IMG/VR virus record: IMGVR_UViG_2690316131_000008
DNA: 16,062 nt
From: a virus
Lineage: Duplodnaviria > Heunggongvirae > Uroviricota > Caudoviricetes
Reading direction: 5' to 3' (one strand)
Shown here: in pieces, positions 2,734 through 15,528 of the stretch
Layout of the letters: each line of letters begins with the position of its first letter
How positions within the stretch are numbered: position 1 is the first letter of the stretch
Notes under the pieces: model-generated
What the model was told of the DNA's origin: nothing
Seen by the model: only the letters and a program-made list of their open reading frames with translations
Database searches by the model: none
Translations under genes and position numbers: made by a program

Positions 2734-3549
2734 TCAATGAACGGTATCGAGCAGCTTTAACAGCTCAGGGAATCGGGATTCGAAGAAATGCGGCTGCGTC
2801 TCGCGCGGATTTGCGGGACTGGTGATGTTCTTGCCGAACATGCAACCTTTCGCTGTCAGCGACCAGAATTTTTTGATGTTGTTAATCGCGGTACGGCTGT
2901 ATCGTTCGCGTTGTTCAACGATCCCCAGCTTCGCCATCTGGTGATATGCCTGATTAGCCGTCAGGCGGATACCATACTGCTTCAGCAGTGCACTCAGCGA
3001 CAGCGTAGGGCGGCTTGAACCATCTGGCGCATCAGCAGGTGCATCAATGGCATAGATCGGCATAAGTTCAGGAAGACCAGCTACCTTTGATAATTTCTGG
3101 TATGCACCAAGTTTCGAGGAGTTTGACAGATTTAGAGTCTTTGCTGCTGATTCAAGCAGAATGACCCCGGATTTAATTTTGTCGGATGTGGTTTCTTCTG
3201 GTGATGAATTATGAAGCGCATCAAAAGTACGTATCACTTTTAAGCTGAATGCCGGGCTGATCCACATTGCATATGCATAGACCAGCTCTTTACAGACATA
3301 CGTCCCACCATTGCGCCCCTGAATGGTGATGACAGGAATACTACGGGAATCTCCCGTAGTTTCTTCTTCCAGTAATTCCACAAGAGCCTTCGTTTCAGGA
3401 CGACGCATAAACTCGTGAACTTCCAGCGAACGGGAGGAGCGATTCTCACCAGCGGCAAGAAGAGCAGCTTTCTGAAGGTCGTTAAGACAGTAGTTAGATT
3501 CGAAGTACTGGCGCACAGAAACGCCATCAATTACAAGCAACTGATTCAT
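2734..3549 (-). CDS. KilA-N domain protein (antirepressor-like)
   Basis: N-terminal segment ...GRNGGTYVCKELVYAYAMWISPAFSLKVIRTFDAL fits the KilA-N signature. Start set at the ATG at 3549 (MNQLL, GGAG ~7 nt upstream); the track's 3561 start is a GTG. Confidence 0.65.
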   Translation of the reverse strand: MNQLLVIDGVSVRQYFESNYCLNDLQKAALLAAGENRSSRSLEVHEFMRRPETKALVELLEEETTGDSRSIPVITIQGRNGGTYVCKELVYAYAMWISPAFSLKVIRTFDALHNSSPEETTSDKIKSGVILLESAAKTLNLSNSSKLGAYQKLSKVAGLPELMPIYAIDAPADAPDGSSRPTLSLSALLKQYGIRLTANQAYHQMAKLGIVEQRERYSRTAINNIKKFWSLTAKGCMFGKNITSPANPRETQPHFFESRFPELLKLLDTVH

Positions 3550-3711
3550 TGGTTTCTCCACAAATTTTTATCCACGAGCGGGACTGCACTCCCTTTTCGT
3601 TGATGCAGGATGAACTTACTGCGATTTTTAATAGTTATCAAGGATACACTGTTCATAAATACAGTATCTTTAACGAGGTAATACCCAAATTTAGGGTGTT
3701 GCTCAATTCCG

Positions 3712-4107
3712 TTACCGAGTTGCTAATTTGCAACTCGCTTTTTCGTACTTACTGATAGTGATCTCGACCTTCCCCTCCGGGATAACCGGTCCCCACTCCA
3801 CCAGCATTCTTTTCACCTGTCTGTCGTCTTCCCACACACCCGCGTGGGTCAGGGCGTCAAACAGCGCCTTGTTATAGTTGTCCAGATCGCGGATCCGGTT
3901 ATCCGGAGGAAACAACACGATCTCCACTGAAGCAGGTGCCGACGTTGGTTTCGGCAGACGACGTAACTGCTCAACTATTGCTGCACACGCCGCGCTCTGG
4001 AATTTTCGCCCCGCCGCGCTTATCAGGCTCTTACCAGCAAACGCCCCTTTGTTGGGGTGTCGCCAGTACGTGTTCACGCTGGGCGGAAAAGGCAGTATTA
4101 GCTTCAT
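3712..4107 (-). CDS. rusA: RusA-family Holliday junction resolvase
   Basis: MKLILPFPPSVNTYWRH...DLDNYNKALFDALTHAGVWEDDRQV matches the RusA signature (LPxPPSxNxYxRH; DLDN; acidic catalytic residues). ATGA overlap with the upstream gene. Confidence 0.8.
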   Translation of the reverse strand: MKLILPFPPSVNTYWRHPNKGAFAGKSLISAAGRKFQSAACAAIVEQLRRLPKPTSAPASVEIVLFPPDNRIRDLDNYNKALFDALTHAGVWEDDRQVKRMLVEWGPVIPEGKVEITISKYEKASCKLATR

Positions 4108-4430
4108 ACTTTCAGGCCCCTCTCATGTAACCAGTGGGCTGCACGCAGCCTGGCGTTTGCCTCACCGGCAAGCAGGGCGCGGATAATCCCGACCGCCTCG
4201 CTGTCGTCGTCCTTCACCGCGGTATGAAGAGTGATACCCCGGGCCACGCCACGCTTTATCGTGATGACACCTTTTTTCTCCAGTGCGCGAAGATGCTCCA
4301 CCGCTGCATTCACCGAACGGTATCCCAGCATGGTTGCCACCTCCTGATTGGTTGGCGGGAAGCCACGTTCTTTCTGATAAGAAATCAGCATATCCAGCAC
4401 CTGCTGCTGGCATTGAGTTAATGTCGTCAT
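4104..4430 (-). CDS. LexA N-terminal DNA-binding domain protein, no peptidase domain
   Basis: MTTLTQCQQQVLDMLISYQKERGFPPTNQEVATMLGYRSVNAAVEHLRALEKKGVITIKRGVARGI parallels the LexA N-terminal winged-helix domain. Only 108 aa, so no S24 domain. ATGA overlaps at both ends. Confidence 0.65.
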   Translation of the reverse strand: MTTLTQCQQQVLDMLISYQKERGFPPTNQEVATMLGYRSVNAAVEHLRALEKKGVITIKRGVARGITLHTAVKDDDSEAVGIIRALLAGEANARLRAAHWLHERGLKV

Positions 4431-5080
4431 GCCGCCATCTCCCTGACCAGTTTTTCCGCCTGCTGGCGAACCTGCGCCAGAAACGCCTCACCACATACCT
4501 CAAGTTCATCGCGCCCGATGTAGCTGATTGCCGCTCCCTTCCAGGTCTTGTCGAAAACAGCAATAGCACCAGCGAAGAAAGCACCTGTTGGCACCTGCTT
4601 TTCGTCTTTCGGGATAAACCAGGCTGGCAGTTCAAAACCAATACGCCCGCGAATAAAAGCAATATGATCTGCATCTTCCGGCCACCATACTTCGCTGGTG
4701 GCCGCTTTGATCAGGAAAACATAGCGCCCGCCCTTATCACGCATGGCACTGGCATGTTTCATGATGTAACGCATGCCGGTGATGTATTGCCCCTCATGCT
4801 GACTGGCGCGGCTGTATGGGGGATTACCAAAGGCAGCACCTTTAAGCTCCGCAAGACGTTCTGACCAGTCATGCGCCAGCGCGTTGTCTTCCGCCGTGTA
4901 ATACGCGGCACATTTGGCGTTATCACCGTCAGTGAACAGATCCAGAACAAACGGACCAAACAAGGTGTTAATTCCCCAGAAAATGTTGTCCGGCGTGCGC
5001 CACTGATCGCCCACTTCCTTCAGTTCATGGGCTGGTTTGTTCCGCAGCTCCACCAGCGCCTGGCAATATTTATTACTCAT
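4427..5080 (-). CDS. Phage Dam-type DNA N6-adenine methyltransferase
   Basis: N-terminal DQWRTPDNIFW (DxWxTP-like) and catalytic GNPPYS (NPPY) motifs. Start refined to the ATG for MSNKYCQ at 5080, which shares one base with the upstream TAA stop. Confidence 0.8.
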   Translation of the reverse strand: MSNKYCQALVELRNKPAHELKEVGDQWRTPDNIFWGINTLFGPFVLDLFTDGDNAKCAAYYTAEDNALAHDWSERLAELKGAAFGNPPYSRASQHEGQYITGMRYIMKHASAMRDKGGRYVFLIKAATSEVWWPEDADHIAFIRGRIGFELPAWFIPKDEKQVPTGAFFAGAIAVFDKTWKGAAISYIGRDELEVCGEAFLAQVRQQAEKLVREMAA

Positions 5081-5571
5081 TAAGCCCCCACGTAATTCCC
5101 TGACAGATACCACTCTTCACCCGATGCAGCGCGCTTGCTGCTTTTCCGTAAGCACCGCTCACGATGCGCCAGAAAATTGTTTCGTTCTGGCTGGGAGTGG
5201 CTTTCACGGAATGCCGCCATCCACACCGTTGCAGCACGACGGTATAAGCCCCTGGACTCCAGTTCTTCCGCCTGGCGGGTCAACAAAATCACCCGGGGAT
5301 CGTTAGTGCCGACATAGAAATTGCGCACAGGTCTGGTTTCACGAACTGGTTGTGGTTCCGGCTCCTGCGCTCTCTCAGTCAGGCGTGGGAAATGTCTGCG
5401 TGTATCTCCTTCACAACGGTGAGCCACACGCCCACTCTGACGTAACTTGCTTGCTGACTGCAGAACGCGCTGCCGTGAGTAACCAGCAAAAGCATCCGCA
5501 ATGTCTCCGGAAGTACACCCCGGATGGGCTTCAATGAATTTCTGAACTTCATTCAAAAGACTCATGATCAC
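5080..5571 (-). CDS. PerC-like putative transcriptional regulator (prophage YfdN-like)
   Basis: Segment LTRQAEELESRGLYRRAATVWMAAF resembles the PerC-family core as I recall it; Arg-rich N-terminal half. GTG/ATG start overlaps the stop of the upstream replication gene. Confidence 0.45.
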   Translation of the reverse strand: MIMSLLNEVQKFIEAHPGCTSGDIADAFAGYSRQRVLQSASKLRQSGRVAHRCEGDTRRHFPRLTERAQEPEPQPVRETRPVRNFYVGTNDPRVILLTRQAEELESRGLYRRAATVWMAAFRESHSQPERNNFLAHRERCLRKSSKRAASGEEWYLSGNYVGA

Positions 5572-6560
5572 CCCCTGAATCCTGCCGGGATCTGGCTGTA
5601 GTCCACGTTGTCGTAACTGGATTTGAAGTACGGGTCTTCGCGTTTTTCGGTGTACGTGCTGACGGACGGCGATAAGCGCAGGGAAAGCTCATCCCATTTT
5701 TCCCGCAGCTTCGACGGGCTGAGCACGTTACGGCACCAGAACGGATCGCGGCTGACGCGGCAGTACATCTCGCAGATTTGTTTGTGAGTACGCCCATCCT
5801 GTACACACATCAGGCGAATTTCGTTTGCCCAGGCTGTCCAGTTCGGTTCTTTAGGACGTACCACTTCGCCGTCACATTCGGCGGCCTGCTCGTACAGAGC
5901 GATGATTTTTTTCCAGAGCCACTGTGCGCAGGTCAAATCATCCTGCGTTCCCCACTGGCGCTTTTTAGGGCTGAATACAACCGCATCAGGATGGCGAGTT
6001 AAAAAATCCTGTTCAGCCATCTGCGTGTCCGGTTGCGAAGCGTCCGGACGAGAAGAGGTTTTATTCTCTGTAGTAATCTCTGTTGTATTCTCTGTAAGAT
6101 CATTGGGCCATTTTGACCCGATGACAGCGTGTCGTTTTGAACCAATGGATCGTGTCATTTTGCGCCCATCCATCAGGTCACTTTGACCCGATGGAGAAGT
6201 GCATTTTGACCTAATGGATTCGTTCACTTTGACCTCTTCTAAAAGCTCACTTTCATAGTTGATCGTGTAGAAGTTGGTCATGTCACGCTTCGATTTATTG
6301 AGTTGCTCGCGACGCAAAACCCCAAGTGATTTCAGGCTTGCAAATGTGCGTTTCAGAGTGGACTCTGACCAGAACGGAAACTGCTCCAGCCACTGTTCTG
6401 TCGTGTTATAAACCCAGCGAATTCCGCCATGCTCAGTGCCGGAATTCGTTTCATTCAGCCAGTAATGAAGCTGCTGCAACACAATTGCCTCATTCAGACC
6501 AATACGGCATGCAAGATCACGATTTATCACAATGGGCTGGGATGTCATTAACAGGCTCAT
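5568..6560 (-). CDS. Phage replication initiation protein (lambda O analogue) with internal origin iterons
   Basis: 330-aa ORF with a helix-turn-helix-like N-terminus and a Cys/Trp-rich C-terminal domain. The central linker region is encoded by the iteron array at 6109-6240, as in lambda O/ori. AGAGGT RBS precedes the ATG at 6560. Confidence 0.65.
   Translation of the reverse strand: MSLLMTSQPIVINRDLACRIGLNEAIVLQQLHYWLNETNSGTEHGGIRWVYNTTEQWLEQFPFWSESTLKRTFASLKSLGVLRREQLNKSKRDMTNFYTINYESELLEEVKVNESIRSKCTSPSGQSDLMDGRKMTRSIGSKRHAVIGSKWPNDLTENTTEITTENKTSSRPDASQPDTQMAEQDFLTRHPDAVVFSPKKRQWGTQDDLTCAQWLWKKIIALYEQAAECDGEVVRPKEPNWTAWANEIRLMCVQDGRTHKQICEMYCRVSRDPFWCRNVLSPSKLREKWDELSLRLSPSVSTYTEKREDPYFKSSYDNVDYSQIPAGFRG
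6109..6240. repeat. Iteron array (putative origin of replication): six ~23-bp direct repeats
   Basis: Direct repeats starting at 6109, 6133, 6156, 6179, 6202 and 6225 (cattttgacccgatg / cgttttgaaccaatgg / cattttgcgcccatcc / cactttgacccgatgg / cattttgacctaatgg / cactttgacctc), period 23-24 bp. Flanked at 6061-6100 by three copies of TCTCTGT at 12-bp spacing. Confidence 0.7.
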
Positions 6561-6904: not shown

Positions 6905-7546
6905 TCATGCGTTAGTTTCTCCACAACCAGAAGCAATCGACGCCACGACGCCCGGAGCTGCACACTCGCGGGCGTTACTCTTTTCCGGCGCACAAAAAAC
7001 ACGAAATAACAGTGTTAAATGCTCCTGCCACTTCGCCATTACTTGGTAGCTGTTCTCTTCGATTTGCTCACGCTCAGCTTGGTCAATAACTCCATCAGCA
7101 GTTGCCTTGCGTAAGTACTGGGAATGCTTGCCAATCCATTCTATTGACTCCATCAGCCGCTGATTAATGTCACCATTGTCAATGTCATCAATGACCACCA
7201 GCGGCACAAACACCCCATTACTACGACGGGCTATTGCATCCGTTACATGCCTGGTACCACTGGCATCCTGTAAAACCATGGCCCACTCAAGTGGAAAAAT
7301 TTGATCCCCACCGCTACGCAGTCTGTTATGCAATTGATCTTTTGCTGGGGTGATATCATCAGATTTATACAAACCAAGAATTTCTGCTGCTTCCTCATAG
7401 CCATGAGGTAAATCAGCAATCGTTCTTCGTATTGCTGCCACCAGCCATGCTGGTTGCTTATCAACTTTCCATTCAGGTTCTTTACCCACGTTTAAGCCCT
7501 CATATCTGTGGTTTCTGTAAATCGATTTATCCATTAGATTTTTCAT
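6905..7546 (-). CDS. YdaT/CII-like putative regulatory protein
   Basis: Sits directly downstream of the Cro/YdaS-like gene, where lambdoid and Rac-type prophages carry cII or ydaT. Start set at the ATG at 7546 (MKNLMDK...), since the track ORF (to 7603) would overlap cro by 77 nt. Functional assignment is positional. Confidence 0.45.
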
Positions 7547-7727
7547 AAAGCTCAGGTTTAAATGGCAACCGTCCGCAAGTTCTATATGCAGCCTCTGCTG
7601 CACGTCCTTTTGGAATTAACTGGCCAGGACGGTTTCGCCACTGATAAACGGCTTCAGTTGTTATGCCGAAAAAAGCAGCAACTTTCTCAATGCTGCCGAA
7701 GTAGCTTTCGATATCGTCAGTCGTCAT
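7527..7727 (-). CDS. Cro/YdaS-like HTH transcriptional regulator
   Basis: 66-aa protein; [46 protein letters not shown] fits the Cro/YdaS-type HTH pattern. Divergent from the CI-like repressor across a 97-bp operator region. Confidence 0.7.
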   Translation of the reverse strand: MTTDDIESYFGSIEKVAAFFGITTEAVYQWRNRPGQLIPKGRAAEAAYRTCGRLPFKPELYEKSNG

Positions 7728-7738
7728 ATGCCCTCCAA

Positions 7739-7803
7739 ACTAAGTTTTATTAGATGTTAATTATCAATCTATCTTAGGTCAATAAAAACTAAGATTACTT
7801 AGT
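7739..7803. promoter_or_regulatory. Divergent promoter/operator region (OR-like) with two 16-bp operator-like sites
   Basis: ACTAAGTTTTATTAGA (7739-7754) and ACTAAGATTACTTAGT (7788-7803) share the pattern ACTAAG-N4-nTTAGn with inverted half-sites, in the 97-bp gap between cro and cI. Confidence 0.5.
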
Positions 7804-7824: not shown

Positions 7825-8451
7825 ATGGAAACGGTTGGTCAGCGTATAAAAGCTCTGAGAAGAGTTACCAGAACGTCCCAGAAAGAATTGGGTAAATTTT
7901 GTGGAGTAAGTGACGTTGCTGTGGGGTACTGGGAGAAAGACATCAATGTCCCTGGTGGGGAAGCACTTTCAAAATTAGCGAAGTTCTTCAATACGTCAAT
8001 AGATTACATTCTTTATGGTGCGGAGTTTGAAGGCAAACTCGTCACAAACATGCGCAGAGTTCCTGTAATCTCGTGGGTTCAGGCTGGGCAGTTTACTGAG
8101 TGCAGGACAGCAGAAGTGTTTAGTGAAGTAGACAAGTGGGTAGATACATCATTAAAGATTGGTGATAACTCATTTGCATTGGAGGTTAAAGGCGACTCCA
8201 TGACTAACCCTAACGGCCTCCCAACAATACCAGAAGGCGCAACAGTGATTGTAGATCCTGATGCAGAACCCCGGCATGGAAAAATAGTCATCGCTAGACT
8301 TGATGGAACAAACGAAGCCACAGTAAAAAAATTAGTTATCGATGGCCCTCAAAAGTTTTTAGTGCCATTAAATCCCCGGTACCCCAACATCCCGATCAAT
8401 GGTAATTGCCTCATCATTGGTGTAGTCAAAGGAGTTCAATACGAACTCTAG
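7825..8451 (+). CDS. CI-like phage repressor (N-terminal HTH, C-terminal S24 LexA-like peptidase)
   Basis: N-terminus QRIKALRRVTRTSQKELGKFCGVSDVAVGYWE is an XRE-type HTH. C-terminus carries GDSM (Ser nucleophile) and VKKL (Lys general base about 40 residues later), as in LexA/lambda CI. Confidence 0.85.
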   Translation: METVGQRIKALRRVTRTSQKELGKFCGVSDVAVGYWEKDINVPGGEALSKLAKFFNTSIDYILYGAEFEGKLVTNMRRVPVISWVQAGQFTECRTAEVFSEVDKWVDTSLKIGDNSFALEVKGDSMTNPNGLPTIPEGATVIVDPDAEPRHGKIVIARLDGTNEATVKKLVIDGPQKFLVPLNPRYPNIPINGNCLIIGVVKGVQYEL

Positions 8452-14539: not shown

Positions 14540-14959
14540 TTACTCATCATCAATAGATGATACGCAATATTTATTTTTAAATTTAAGGTTCTTTGGCGTA
14601 ACTTCATCAGAGATATCAAAACCGTCCAGAATTCTATTGAATGTAGCTTCTGGCATATCATCATGAACAGAAATCTCACCCGATCGCTGCTTTCTAACCA
14701 TGTTATCCACTCGCCAAATTATAGCTTCAGCGTAAACAACATAACTTGGATGCTTGATAAAGCGATGATCACCAGAATTCAAGACGCAAGACGGATCGTG
14801 GGGGACACCATCCTTGATACTAGAAATATTAACAACTAAAACACAATAACAATCGTTAACGGGGTAATAAACAGGATCATTACAAATCACATGAAGATGA
14901 TTGCATGGTCCAGTTGGGGCAAGCACAGTTCCTTTCCTGTATGGCTGATAATCCGTCAT
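14540..14959 (-). CDS. Hypothetical protein; candidate toxin/effector partner of the Panacea-domain protein
   Basis: 139 aa, AT-rich, Cys/His-rich (CNHLHVICNDP...CYCVL...HDPSCVL). Start codon overlaps the stop of the upstream Panacea gene (ATGA at 14956-14959). No recognisable domain by eye. Confidence 0.55.
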   Translation of the reverse strand: MTDYQPYRKGTVLAPTGPCNHLHVICNDPVYYPVNDCYCVLVVNISSIKDGVPHDPSCVLNSGDHRFIKHPSYVVYAEAIIWRVDNMVRKQRSGEISVHDDMPEATFNRILDGFDISDEVTPKNLKFKNKYCVSSIDDE

Positions 14960-15528
14960 GATAATTGCAAAGAAAATTCCTTAAGTTTCTGAGATTCTTC
15001 CATTTTGCCAATTATGCGATTAGCCTCATCCTCGCTTTTACCCTCACTGATCAGCATTTCTTTCAGGTCTATAGGCTTACGAGAATTGCCAGGATCGTGC
15101 CACTCTGGACAAACGCTTTCTAAATGCGTCATATTTGCGAGATCAAATCGGTTCATATGCCCATACCGAGAATAGATTTCATCTAAAATCCGGATATCTG
15201 CACGACTCAATTCATCAAAGACCTCGTCTGCATCCATTTCCCTCGGATCTGAACGCAACGATACATTATGCCCGTTCGTCTCTATCAAGTTGTACCAGTA
15301 GTCACCAATGCCTTCAGCCTTACCGCGAATCAAGTTCAGCGTATTCGACATGACTGGTCCAAATTTCATAGAGTAAAGGCTATCTTCGCCGATCATCCTG
15401 CCATGCTTCAAAATCGACTGGCGGTTAGACAGATAGAGCAGCTTCATCAATTTCAGATATGCCATGCGCCCACCTCTCTTAAGAAGTAGGTATGCAGCCA
15501 TTTGAGCTACTTTTTCTTCGCAAAACAT
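14956..15528 (-). CDS. Panacea-domain (DUF4065) protein, PanA/SocA-like putative antitoxin
   Basis: MAYLKLMKLLYLSNRQSILKHGRMIGEDSLYSMKFGPV... parallels the Panacea core (MKLQKLLYFA ... W.YGPV) of SocA/PanA antitoxins. AT-rich; GAGG ~8 nt upstream of the ATG at 15528. Confidence 0.65.
   Translation of the reverse strand: MFCEEKVAQMAAYLLLKRGGRMAYLKLMKLLYLSNRQSILKHGRMIGEDSLYSMKFGPVMSNTLNLIRGKAEGIGDYWYNLIETNGHNVSLRSDPREMDADEVFDELSRADIRILDEIYSRYGHMNRFDLANMTHLESVCPEWHDPGNSRKPIDLKEMLISEGKSEDEANRIIGKMEESQKLKEFSLQLS

Follow-up and report, generated by a model that had tools for sequence, protein, structure and literature searches.

We analysed a 16,062-nt stretch of viral DNA (Caudoviricetes; IMG/VR record IMGVR_UViG_2690316131_000008), referred to below in its full length as the window, and focused on a gene in it that encodes a phage N6-adenine methyltransferase. 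The coding sequence occupies positions 4427..5080 of the minus strand, stop codon included, and specifies a protein of 217 amino acids (aa). The open reading frame (ORF) is intact, with a length of 654 nt, and runs from an ATG at 5080-5078 to a TGA at 4429-4427. A preliminary description of this DNA had placed the gene at 4427-5080, an interval that proved exact to the base, and had left the strand unstated. In the ORF list the frame extends in the upstream direction to a GTG at 5113 (5081..5113, minus strand), which would add 11 residues; this extension is probably not translated as part of the methyltransferase. The ATG at 5080 is preferred as the start because it is used both by the Prokaryotic Genome Annotation Pipeline (PGAP) in a related prophage and in the GenBank record of Shigella flexneri phage SfV, and because homologues from Cronobacter, Enterobacter and Atlantibacter have equivalent N-termini.

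Conservation of the sequence motifs was judged in family alignments of 3, 20 and 104 sequences. The sequence DQWRTP at residues 25-30 (4991..5008, minus strand) corresponds to the N-terminal DxWxTP motif of the family. Its residues D25, W27 and T29 are invariant, and P30 is invariant or nearly so, in alignments that include the Dam proteins of T1, HP1 and VT2-Sa. The sequence NPPY at residues 86-89 (4814..4825, minus strand) is the catalytic motif IV of amino-methyltransferases. Loss of the catalytic motif on alignment had been named in the preliminary description as one finding that would speak against its reading; the motif is retained, with N86, P87 and P88 invariant and Y89 nearly so across the 104 sequences. 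Asp47 (codon at 4940..4942, minus strand), at the C-terminal end of the first β-strand (FVLDL), is invariant in all alignments and, judging from the general class-I methyltransferase fold, would be a residue that binds the cofactor S-adenosylmethionine (AdoMet). All invariant family positions are retained in the window protein.

Profile searches identified the gene as an intact member of the PF05869/TIGR01712 family of phage N6-adenine methyltransferases. Pfam matched PF05869, 'DNA N-6-adenine-methyltransferase (Dam)', with an E value of 1.1e-44 (152.5 bits, against a cut-off of 28.1), and the NCBIfam equivalog TIGR01712, 'phage N-6-adenine-methyltransferase', was matched over its entire length (profile 1-165/165) with an E value of 1.9e-75 (251.9 bits, against 97.05). 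In PHROGs the protein belongs to phrog_111, DNA methyltransferase, and the PADLOC MTase_II model PDLC03263 (217 positions, type II methyltransferase) was matched end to end with 518 bits. An identical 217-aa protein is deposited at NCBI as 'phage N-6-adenine-methyltransferase [Escherichia coli]' (CTV92835.1 and others). The matches in PF05869, TIGR01712 and PADLOC, together with the NPPY and DxWxTP motifs, bear out the identity of a phage adenine methyltransferase that had been proposed from the letters of the DNA. The accompanying term 'Dam-type' is appropriate as a functional label but not as a statement of homology to the Dam enzymes of E. coli and T4 (PF02086, alpha class); Pfam reports PF05869 alone. 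In the Pfam scan at E values up to 0.01, no family besides PF05869 was returned for the methyltransferase, neither PF02086 nor MT-A70, and sequence and profile searches of the PDB did not match the protein to solved Dam structures. The E. coli and T4 enzymes have in common with the window protein the chemistry, N6-adenine methylation with a (D/N)PPY motif, as well as the 'Dam' label, but they constitute another family with another order of motifs: in PF02086, motif I precedes and DPPY follows the target-recognition domain.

Several known classes of enzyme were considered as the identity of the protein and rejected. The MT-A70 rRNA methyltransferase class was ruled out by the motif, which is NPPY and not DPPW, and by a Pfam result without an MT-A70 match; M.EcoGV and M.EcoPA8orf6770P are members of the MT-A70 family. 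M.EcoGIX is plasmid-borne, single-strand specific and of a different family, M.EcoMIV belongs to PF02086, Hia5/Hin1523 is EcoDam-like with a DPPY motif, and the phiP27 L24 / PhiOS31_p25 type falls in PF01555.

The protein was modelled with AlphaFold (model m7cb672b35509; window 4430-5080) on the 104-sequence alignment, which includes classical family members. The resulting model is confident, with a predicted local distance difference test score (pLDDT) of 93.3 and a predicted template modelling score (pTM) of 0.90; a shallow alignment of 30 close homologues, at least 76% identical, gave a pLDDT of 41.6. The predicted structure has a class-I AdoMet methyltransferase fold in which NPPY comes right after strand 82-85 (β4), the canonical place of motif IV, Asp47 lies at the end of the first strand (44-48), and a long C-terminal helix (190-216) closes the domain.

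The gene is under strong purifying selection. The ratio of nonsynonymous to synonymous substitution rates (dN/dS) is 0.07 relative to the SfV copy, 0.04 relative to the E. coli CAU16175 copy, and 0.04-0.06 relative to the Cronobacter and Enterobacter copies, where synonymous sites are saturated. These values bear on the idea that the gene sits in a decaying or inactive prophage relic and has no present function. In lysogens, the methyltransferase genes of prophages are frequently not transcribed (PMC4659465), and truncated copies of this gene are common, as illustrated by yfdM of E. coli K-12, which stops after NPPY, and by many partial database entries. The window copy, however, is full length with every invariant residue present, dN/dS is 0.04-0.07 even in comparison with copies showing saturated synonymous divergence, and the gene is also found in functional, inducible phages (SfV, Stx2 phages). 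We therefore consider a functionless relic highly improbable.

The preliminary description had also stated that no restriction endonuclease adjoins the gene, and this holds. The nearby genes encode PerC-like, LexA-domain, RusA, KilA-N and O-like proteins. Pfam matched no restriction-endonuclease family in the 20 ORFs of 70 aa or more that were scanned from the 16-kb window, the remainder being overlapping alternative-frame ORFs. With PADLOC, applied to the methyltransferase and nine further window ORFs, no defence partner was detected. These results support the classification of the methyltransferase as an orphan (solitary) enzyme, with no nuclease partner in the scanned ORFs of the 16-kb window. 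A DUF968 protein encoded at 1737-2732 on the minus strand gave a weak match to the HNH-type nuclease family PF16784 (26.8 bits, against a cut-off of 26.6), and its gene is conserved between the KilA-N gene and the antiterminator gene Q in related prophages. If the methyltransferase were the modification half of a restriction-modification system with an overlooked nuclease, this protein, three genes downstream, would be the candidate by virtue of its weak HNH-type match, and the label 'Type II methyltransferase' on the top PADLOC model would be in keeping with such a system. However, DUF968 is standard upstream of Q in such prophages and is also present in relatives with other gene orders, and the PADLOC label says to which class the model belongs without indicating that a system is present. 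Moreover, the genes that adjoin the methyltransferase encode the PerC-like regulator, the LexA-domain protein and RusA, and neither a restriction-endonuclease family nor a PADLOC partner was matched in 16 kb. We regard an overlooked restriction-modification system as exceedingly improbable.

The window covers the immunity, replication and nin-like region in an SfV/CPS-53-like lambdoid prophage of E. coli or Shigella. A cI-type repressor gene, encoding a helix-turn-helix domain and an S24 peptidase, is located at 7825-8451 on the plus strand, opposite to the methyltransferase. A PR-like σ70 promoter on the minus strand (TTGACC-17-TAACAT, 7754..7782), proposed solely from its match to 9/12 consensus positions, may be the start of an early transcript that reaches the methyltransferase gene. 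On the same minus strand are a cro-like gene (7527-7727), a cII-like gene (6905-7603), an O-like replication gene (5568-6560) and, as the upstream neighbour of the methyltransferase, a gene for a PerC/YfdN-like regulator (5080..5571; PF06069 with an E value of 1.3e-8, phrog_1324, PGAP equivalent yfdN). The downstream neighbour encodes a 108-aa protein with a LexA DNA-binding domain (4104..4430; PF01726 at residues 1-65, phrog_362), and is followed by genes for RusA (3712-4107), the KilA-N protein (2734-3561), the DUF968/HNH-like protein described above and antiterminator Q (1348-1734). The methyltransferase gene overlaps both of its neighbours. At a TAATG junction (5078..5082, minus strand) the PerC/YfdN-like gene shares one base of its stop codon with the methyltransferase ATG, and at an ATGA junction (4427..4430, minus strand) the ATG of the LexA-domain gene overlaps the methyltransferase TGA. 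The anatomy of the region thus supports placing the methyltransferase in a putative rightward early (PR) operon, between the cro, cII and replication genes and Q. The earlier assignment to an 'early operon' appears sound in view of the gene order and orientation downstream of the cro-like gene and the PR-like promoter, opposite the cI-type repressor gene. A dam promoter of its own, annotated in the SfV record with -35 and -10 elements inside the upstream gene, was considered and rejected for the window. The equivalent hexamers (TGGCGC and TACGGA; 5145-5171, minus strand, corresponding to L012:3719-3745) are weak, each agreeing with the consensus at 3/6 positions, and were not reported by the promoter scan of the window.

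Taken together, we favour, with a probability of about 0.8, the reading that the gene encodes an intact, functional, stand-alone AdoMet-dependent N6-adenine DNA methyltransferase of PF05869/TIGR01712, carried on an SfV/CPS-53-like lambdoid prophage. As one part of this reading, we consider it very probable that the protein is an active DNA methyltransferase producing N6-methyladenine (m6A). The gene would be silent in the lysogen because its operon is under the cI-type repressor, and it would be transcribed from PR after induction or infection, with translation in step with that of the neighbouring genes by way of the overlapping stop and start codons. Target adenines of replicating phage DNA, and incidentally of host DNA, would be flipped into the NPPY pocket to receive a methyl group at N6. 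Fast-replicating phage genomes would in this manner be kept fully methylated and, on entering the next host, would be shielded from methylation-sensitive restriction. It counts against this scheme that the presumed timing of expression is read from gene order alone.

The nature of the substrate is suggested by relatives of the protein. In P0133, P0129 and P0126, a domain from the same subfamily (67-74% identical) is joined in one protein to a C5-cytosine DNA methylase domain, complete or partial, and a C5-methylase-like gene is located directly downstream in Cronobacter prophages and in phage Eeyore. Because the subfamily is fused to, or adjoins, C5-cytosine DNA methylases, DNA rather than RNA is the likely substrate. 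In some relatives a C5-cytosine-methylase-like gene of 645-660 aa lies between dam and the LexA-like gene (L005:4001-6843 in Cronobacter; L010:3492-6756 in Eeyore). The arrangement of dam with a C5-methylase gene looks like a mobile double-methylase cassette.

A different view would hold that the protein is not primarily a DNA enzyme, and that it methylates RNA or needs a partner subunit to find its real substrate, a role that the LexA-domain or the PerC-like protein could fill. A precedent exists in the 'DNA adenine methyltransferase' M.EcoPA8orf6770P of an Stx prophage, which is a two-subunit 16S rRNA methyltransferase together with PNB-2 (PMC10810198); M.EcoGV methylates GATC on overproduction (PMC10810198). 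M.EcoPA8orf6770P / M.EcoGV resembles the gene studied here in its prophage location and in its annotation as a DNA adenine methyltransferase, but it is an MT-A70 enzyme with a DPPW motif that needs PNB-2 and prefers 16S rRNA, and it is unrelated at the family level to the window protein, which has NPPY and matches PF05869 only. The rRNA result is not transferable because M.EcoPA8orf6770P belongs to this other family; the case is nevertheless a reason not to take annotation as proof.

The same view could draw on structural comparisons. Sequence and profile searches of the PDB found no solved structures of PF05869 members. The nearest solved structure in Foldseek is an RNA cap enzyme, the N6,2'-O-dimethyladenosine (m6Am) methyltransferase CAPAM/PCIF1 (E value 3.7e-4, template modelling (TM) score 0.44-0.47, 10% identity). 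This top match is weak, however, and DNA methyltransferases are close behind. HsdM of EcoR124I, DrdV, CamA and METTL3/14 come next among solved structures; like CAPAM/PCIF1 they are N6-adenine/adenosine methyltransferases, and all are distant (TM score below 0.5), with the METTL3/14 fold matches having a probability of ~0.1. Among viral predicted structures, the top matches are models of phage 'DNA N-6-adenine-methyltransferase' proteins (E value 1e-11, TM score ~0.6), and giant-virus PCIF1 homologues also appear. The comparisons with the model give hints of a remote link between the PF05869 and CAPAM/PCIF1 families. The overlaps of start and stop codons with both neighbouring genes could be taken as a sign of a partner, but family members methylate DNA when expressed alone (PMC4996451), and the fusions to C5 DNA methylases described above occur in the same subfamily. 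An enzyme directed primarily at RNA, or dependent on a partner, is accordingly very improbable in our estimation.

The LexA-domain neighbour in particular was rejected as an obligatory partner. In Cronobacter a gene for a 660-aa protein intervenes, and for several E. coli genomes the match rows give RusA, not the LexA-family gene, next to the methyltransferase. The LexA-domain gene is kept in Cronobacter and Enterobacter prophages. Pfam did not report Peptidase_S24 in the 108-aa product of 4104-4430, and RecA-stimulated self-cleavage should therefore not remove this protein, which could bind SOS boxes in lytic growth. At the opposite end of the methyltransferase gene, PerC+Dam fusion proteins of 380-382 aa are present in databases (P0011, 12 contigs; P0271, 28 contigs). 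They result from a frameshift close to the TAATG junction that is either genuine or due to an error in sequencing.

The target of the enzyme can be approached through characterized members of the family. T1 Dam, HP1 Dam, VT2-Sa and M.Btr190III are reported to methylate GATC (PMC6602927, PMC4996451, PMC7556043). Specifically, M.EcoVT2Dam (VT2-Sakai orf32) targets GATC (PMC6602927), M.EcoT1Dam is GATC-modifying, and its relative M.Btr190III methylates GATC with notable off-target activity (PMC4996451); VT-2 and HP1 are listed among the phages with Dam-like genes (PMC7556043). Pfam confirmed T1, HP1 and VT2-Sa orf32 as PF05869 members, and the three Dam proteins share with the window protein the invariant positions of DxWxTP, Asp47, NPPYS and GR-x-x-F. 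These genes and that of M.Btr190III are likewise orphan phage or prophage genes, and VT2 orf32 is also placed between replication genes and Q. By analogy with these enzymes, GATC would be the most likely target, perhaps with relaxed fidelity, and we put the odds of this slightly above even.

Several observations weigh against GATC. In a comparison that covered T1, HP1 and VT2-Sa and left out M.Btr190III, the window protein is only 24% identical to T1 Dam, 26% to HP1 Dam and 31% to VT2-Sa Dam. It carries a subfamily-specific insertion with a conserved TGM right after NPPYSR (residues 92-102; 4775..4807, minus strand), which measures 10-14 residues across the subfamily, is absent from T1, HP1 and VT2-Sa Dam, and is modelled as a β-hairpin with strands 93-95 and 98-101 (pLDDT ~90). 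In addition, a loop at residues 150-167 (4580..4633, minus strand), positioned in the model between two long C-terminal strands (139-148 and 168-176), is differently composed and longer than its shorter counterparts in T1, HP1 and VT2-Sa, and is a candidate DNA-recognition element. Going by the general architecture of methyltransferases, the hairpin and this loop would be situated at sites of expected contact with the target. The frequency of GATC in the window shows neither avoidance nor enrichment, with 62 occurrences observed and 62-74 expected, and composition is uninformative in this respect. A GATC enzyme also looks redundant in a dam+ host, and our literature search found no measured specificity or activity for close (>50% identical) homologues. 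Low identity to the GATC enzymes and subfamily insertions near the catalytic motif are the reasons why GATC is likely yet not established. The statement in the preliminary description that target specificity cannot be read from the sequence was fair, given a GATC precedent set by enzymes only 24-31% identical and a subfamily with extra segments.

We also considered an active DNA adenine methyltransferase with a target other than GATC, either another short motif or nearly any adenine, the latter making it a broad anti-restriction device. The same 24-31% identity to the compared GATC enzymes, the insertion after NPPY peculiar to the subfamily and the longer loop 150-167 would be in line with such a target, and the enzyme would then no longer look redundant beside host Dam. 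Within the family, M.Btr190III already has marked activity off its target (PMC4996451), and enterobacterial phages do include prophage adenine methyltransferases that are non-specific (PMC3299994, PMC7556043). On the other hand, all four characterized PF05869 members are reported as GATC methylators, and other families account for the known non-specific enzymes, Hia5 being EcoDam-related with DPPY and phiP27 L24/PhiOS31_p25 being PF01555 members. Hia5/Hin1523 and phiP27 L24/PhiOS31_p25 are similar to the window gene in being orphan, phage-borne and thought to act against restriction, but differ from it in family. A target other than GATC is on balance doubtful. Equally tentative is the more specific proposal that the insertion-bearing subfamily as a whole does not consist of GATC enzymes, and that the hairpin and loop 150-167 confer a different or relaxed adenine target. 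If this proposal were true, lambdoid prophages in ~39% of complete E. coli genomes would switch on uncharted methylation when induced, which would affect the evasion of restriction as well as the interpretation of methylomes from induced cultures.

The gene that we read as a stand-alone DNA adenine methyltransferase is already known and is among the commonest prophage genes of E. coli. A match at 90% identity or more is carried by 2120 of the 5426 complete E. coli genomes (~39%), all but one of these matches having at least 95% identity, and 1725 of the 2120 genomes hold at least 80% of the methyltransferase gene. At the nucleotide level the gene is 97-98% identical to dam (orf41) of phage SfV and also to genes of Stx2a and Stx2c phages, mEp460 and ECOR13 phages. 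The copies in SfV, the Stx2a- and Stx2c-converting phages, mEp460 and ECOR13 have the same length of 654 nt and a protein identity of 97-99%, and differ from the window gene by a handful of substitutions only. They also share its neighbours, in the order orf40/YfdN-like, dam, orf42/LexA-like and RusA. The gene is not a new find, because the exact protein is deposited and the name dam has been in use for near-identical genes from the SfV genome record onwards. With curated models that name the gene, a deposited identical protein and such a high frequency in E. coli, it has little weight as a discovery. Its interest lies in the fact that the specificity of one subfamily member would annotate thousands of genomes, the close relatives being apparently without a measured specificity. 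The subfamily comprises ~97 representatives (50% clustering, E value below 1e-30), and a further search for homologues, made with a mixed profile, recovered for the most part close relatives already found.

In E. coli K-12 the gene is represented by yfdM (b2356; L011:6113-6388) of the cryptic prophage CPS-53. YfdM is 100% identical to the window protein over residues 1-89, and the upstream yfdN is common to both loci, but YfdM is a truncated remnant of 91 aa that ends just after NPPY, with the C-terminal 60% of the fold missing. A preprint from the Wood laboratory nonetheless reports that the T1-like phage SW1 requires yfdM in order to propagate, and speculates on methylation at a pac-like site (bioRxiv 10.1101/413146). 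This result says little about the intact enzyme, because YfdM is without everything past NPPY and because methylation was not measured.

Annotation of the gene is inconsistent in some phage records. Several RefSeq entries (NC_003444 for SfV and NC_049941 for Stx2a_WGPS2), as well as phage Eeyore (L010:3492-4826), carry the label 'phosphoadenosine phosphosulfate reductase'. The phosphoadenosine phosphosulfate (PAPS) reductase label is also attached to phrog_33262, which matches the window protein only at profile positions 283-492/495, the Dam part of a fused family. A PAPS-reductase domain is genuinely present in fusions such as P0130 and P0143 but is absent from the window gene and from SfV dam. 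The name therefore fits the fused relatives only and should not be propagated.

Two further observations were made. A 252-aa homologue from Salmonella enterica (P0001), represented by one deposited sequence, contains an exact internal tandem duplication of 35 residues (IMKHASAMRDKGGRYVFLIKAATSEVWWPEDADHI, present twice) in the methyltransferase core. Finally, at 14540-15528 on the minus strand of the window, a gene for a SocA/Panacea antitoxin-domain protein (14956-15528) is located directly upstream of a 139-aa ORF (14540-14959) that gave no family match, and the two may constitute a toxin-antitoxin pair at the prophage edge.

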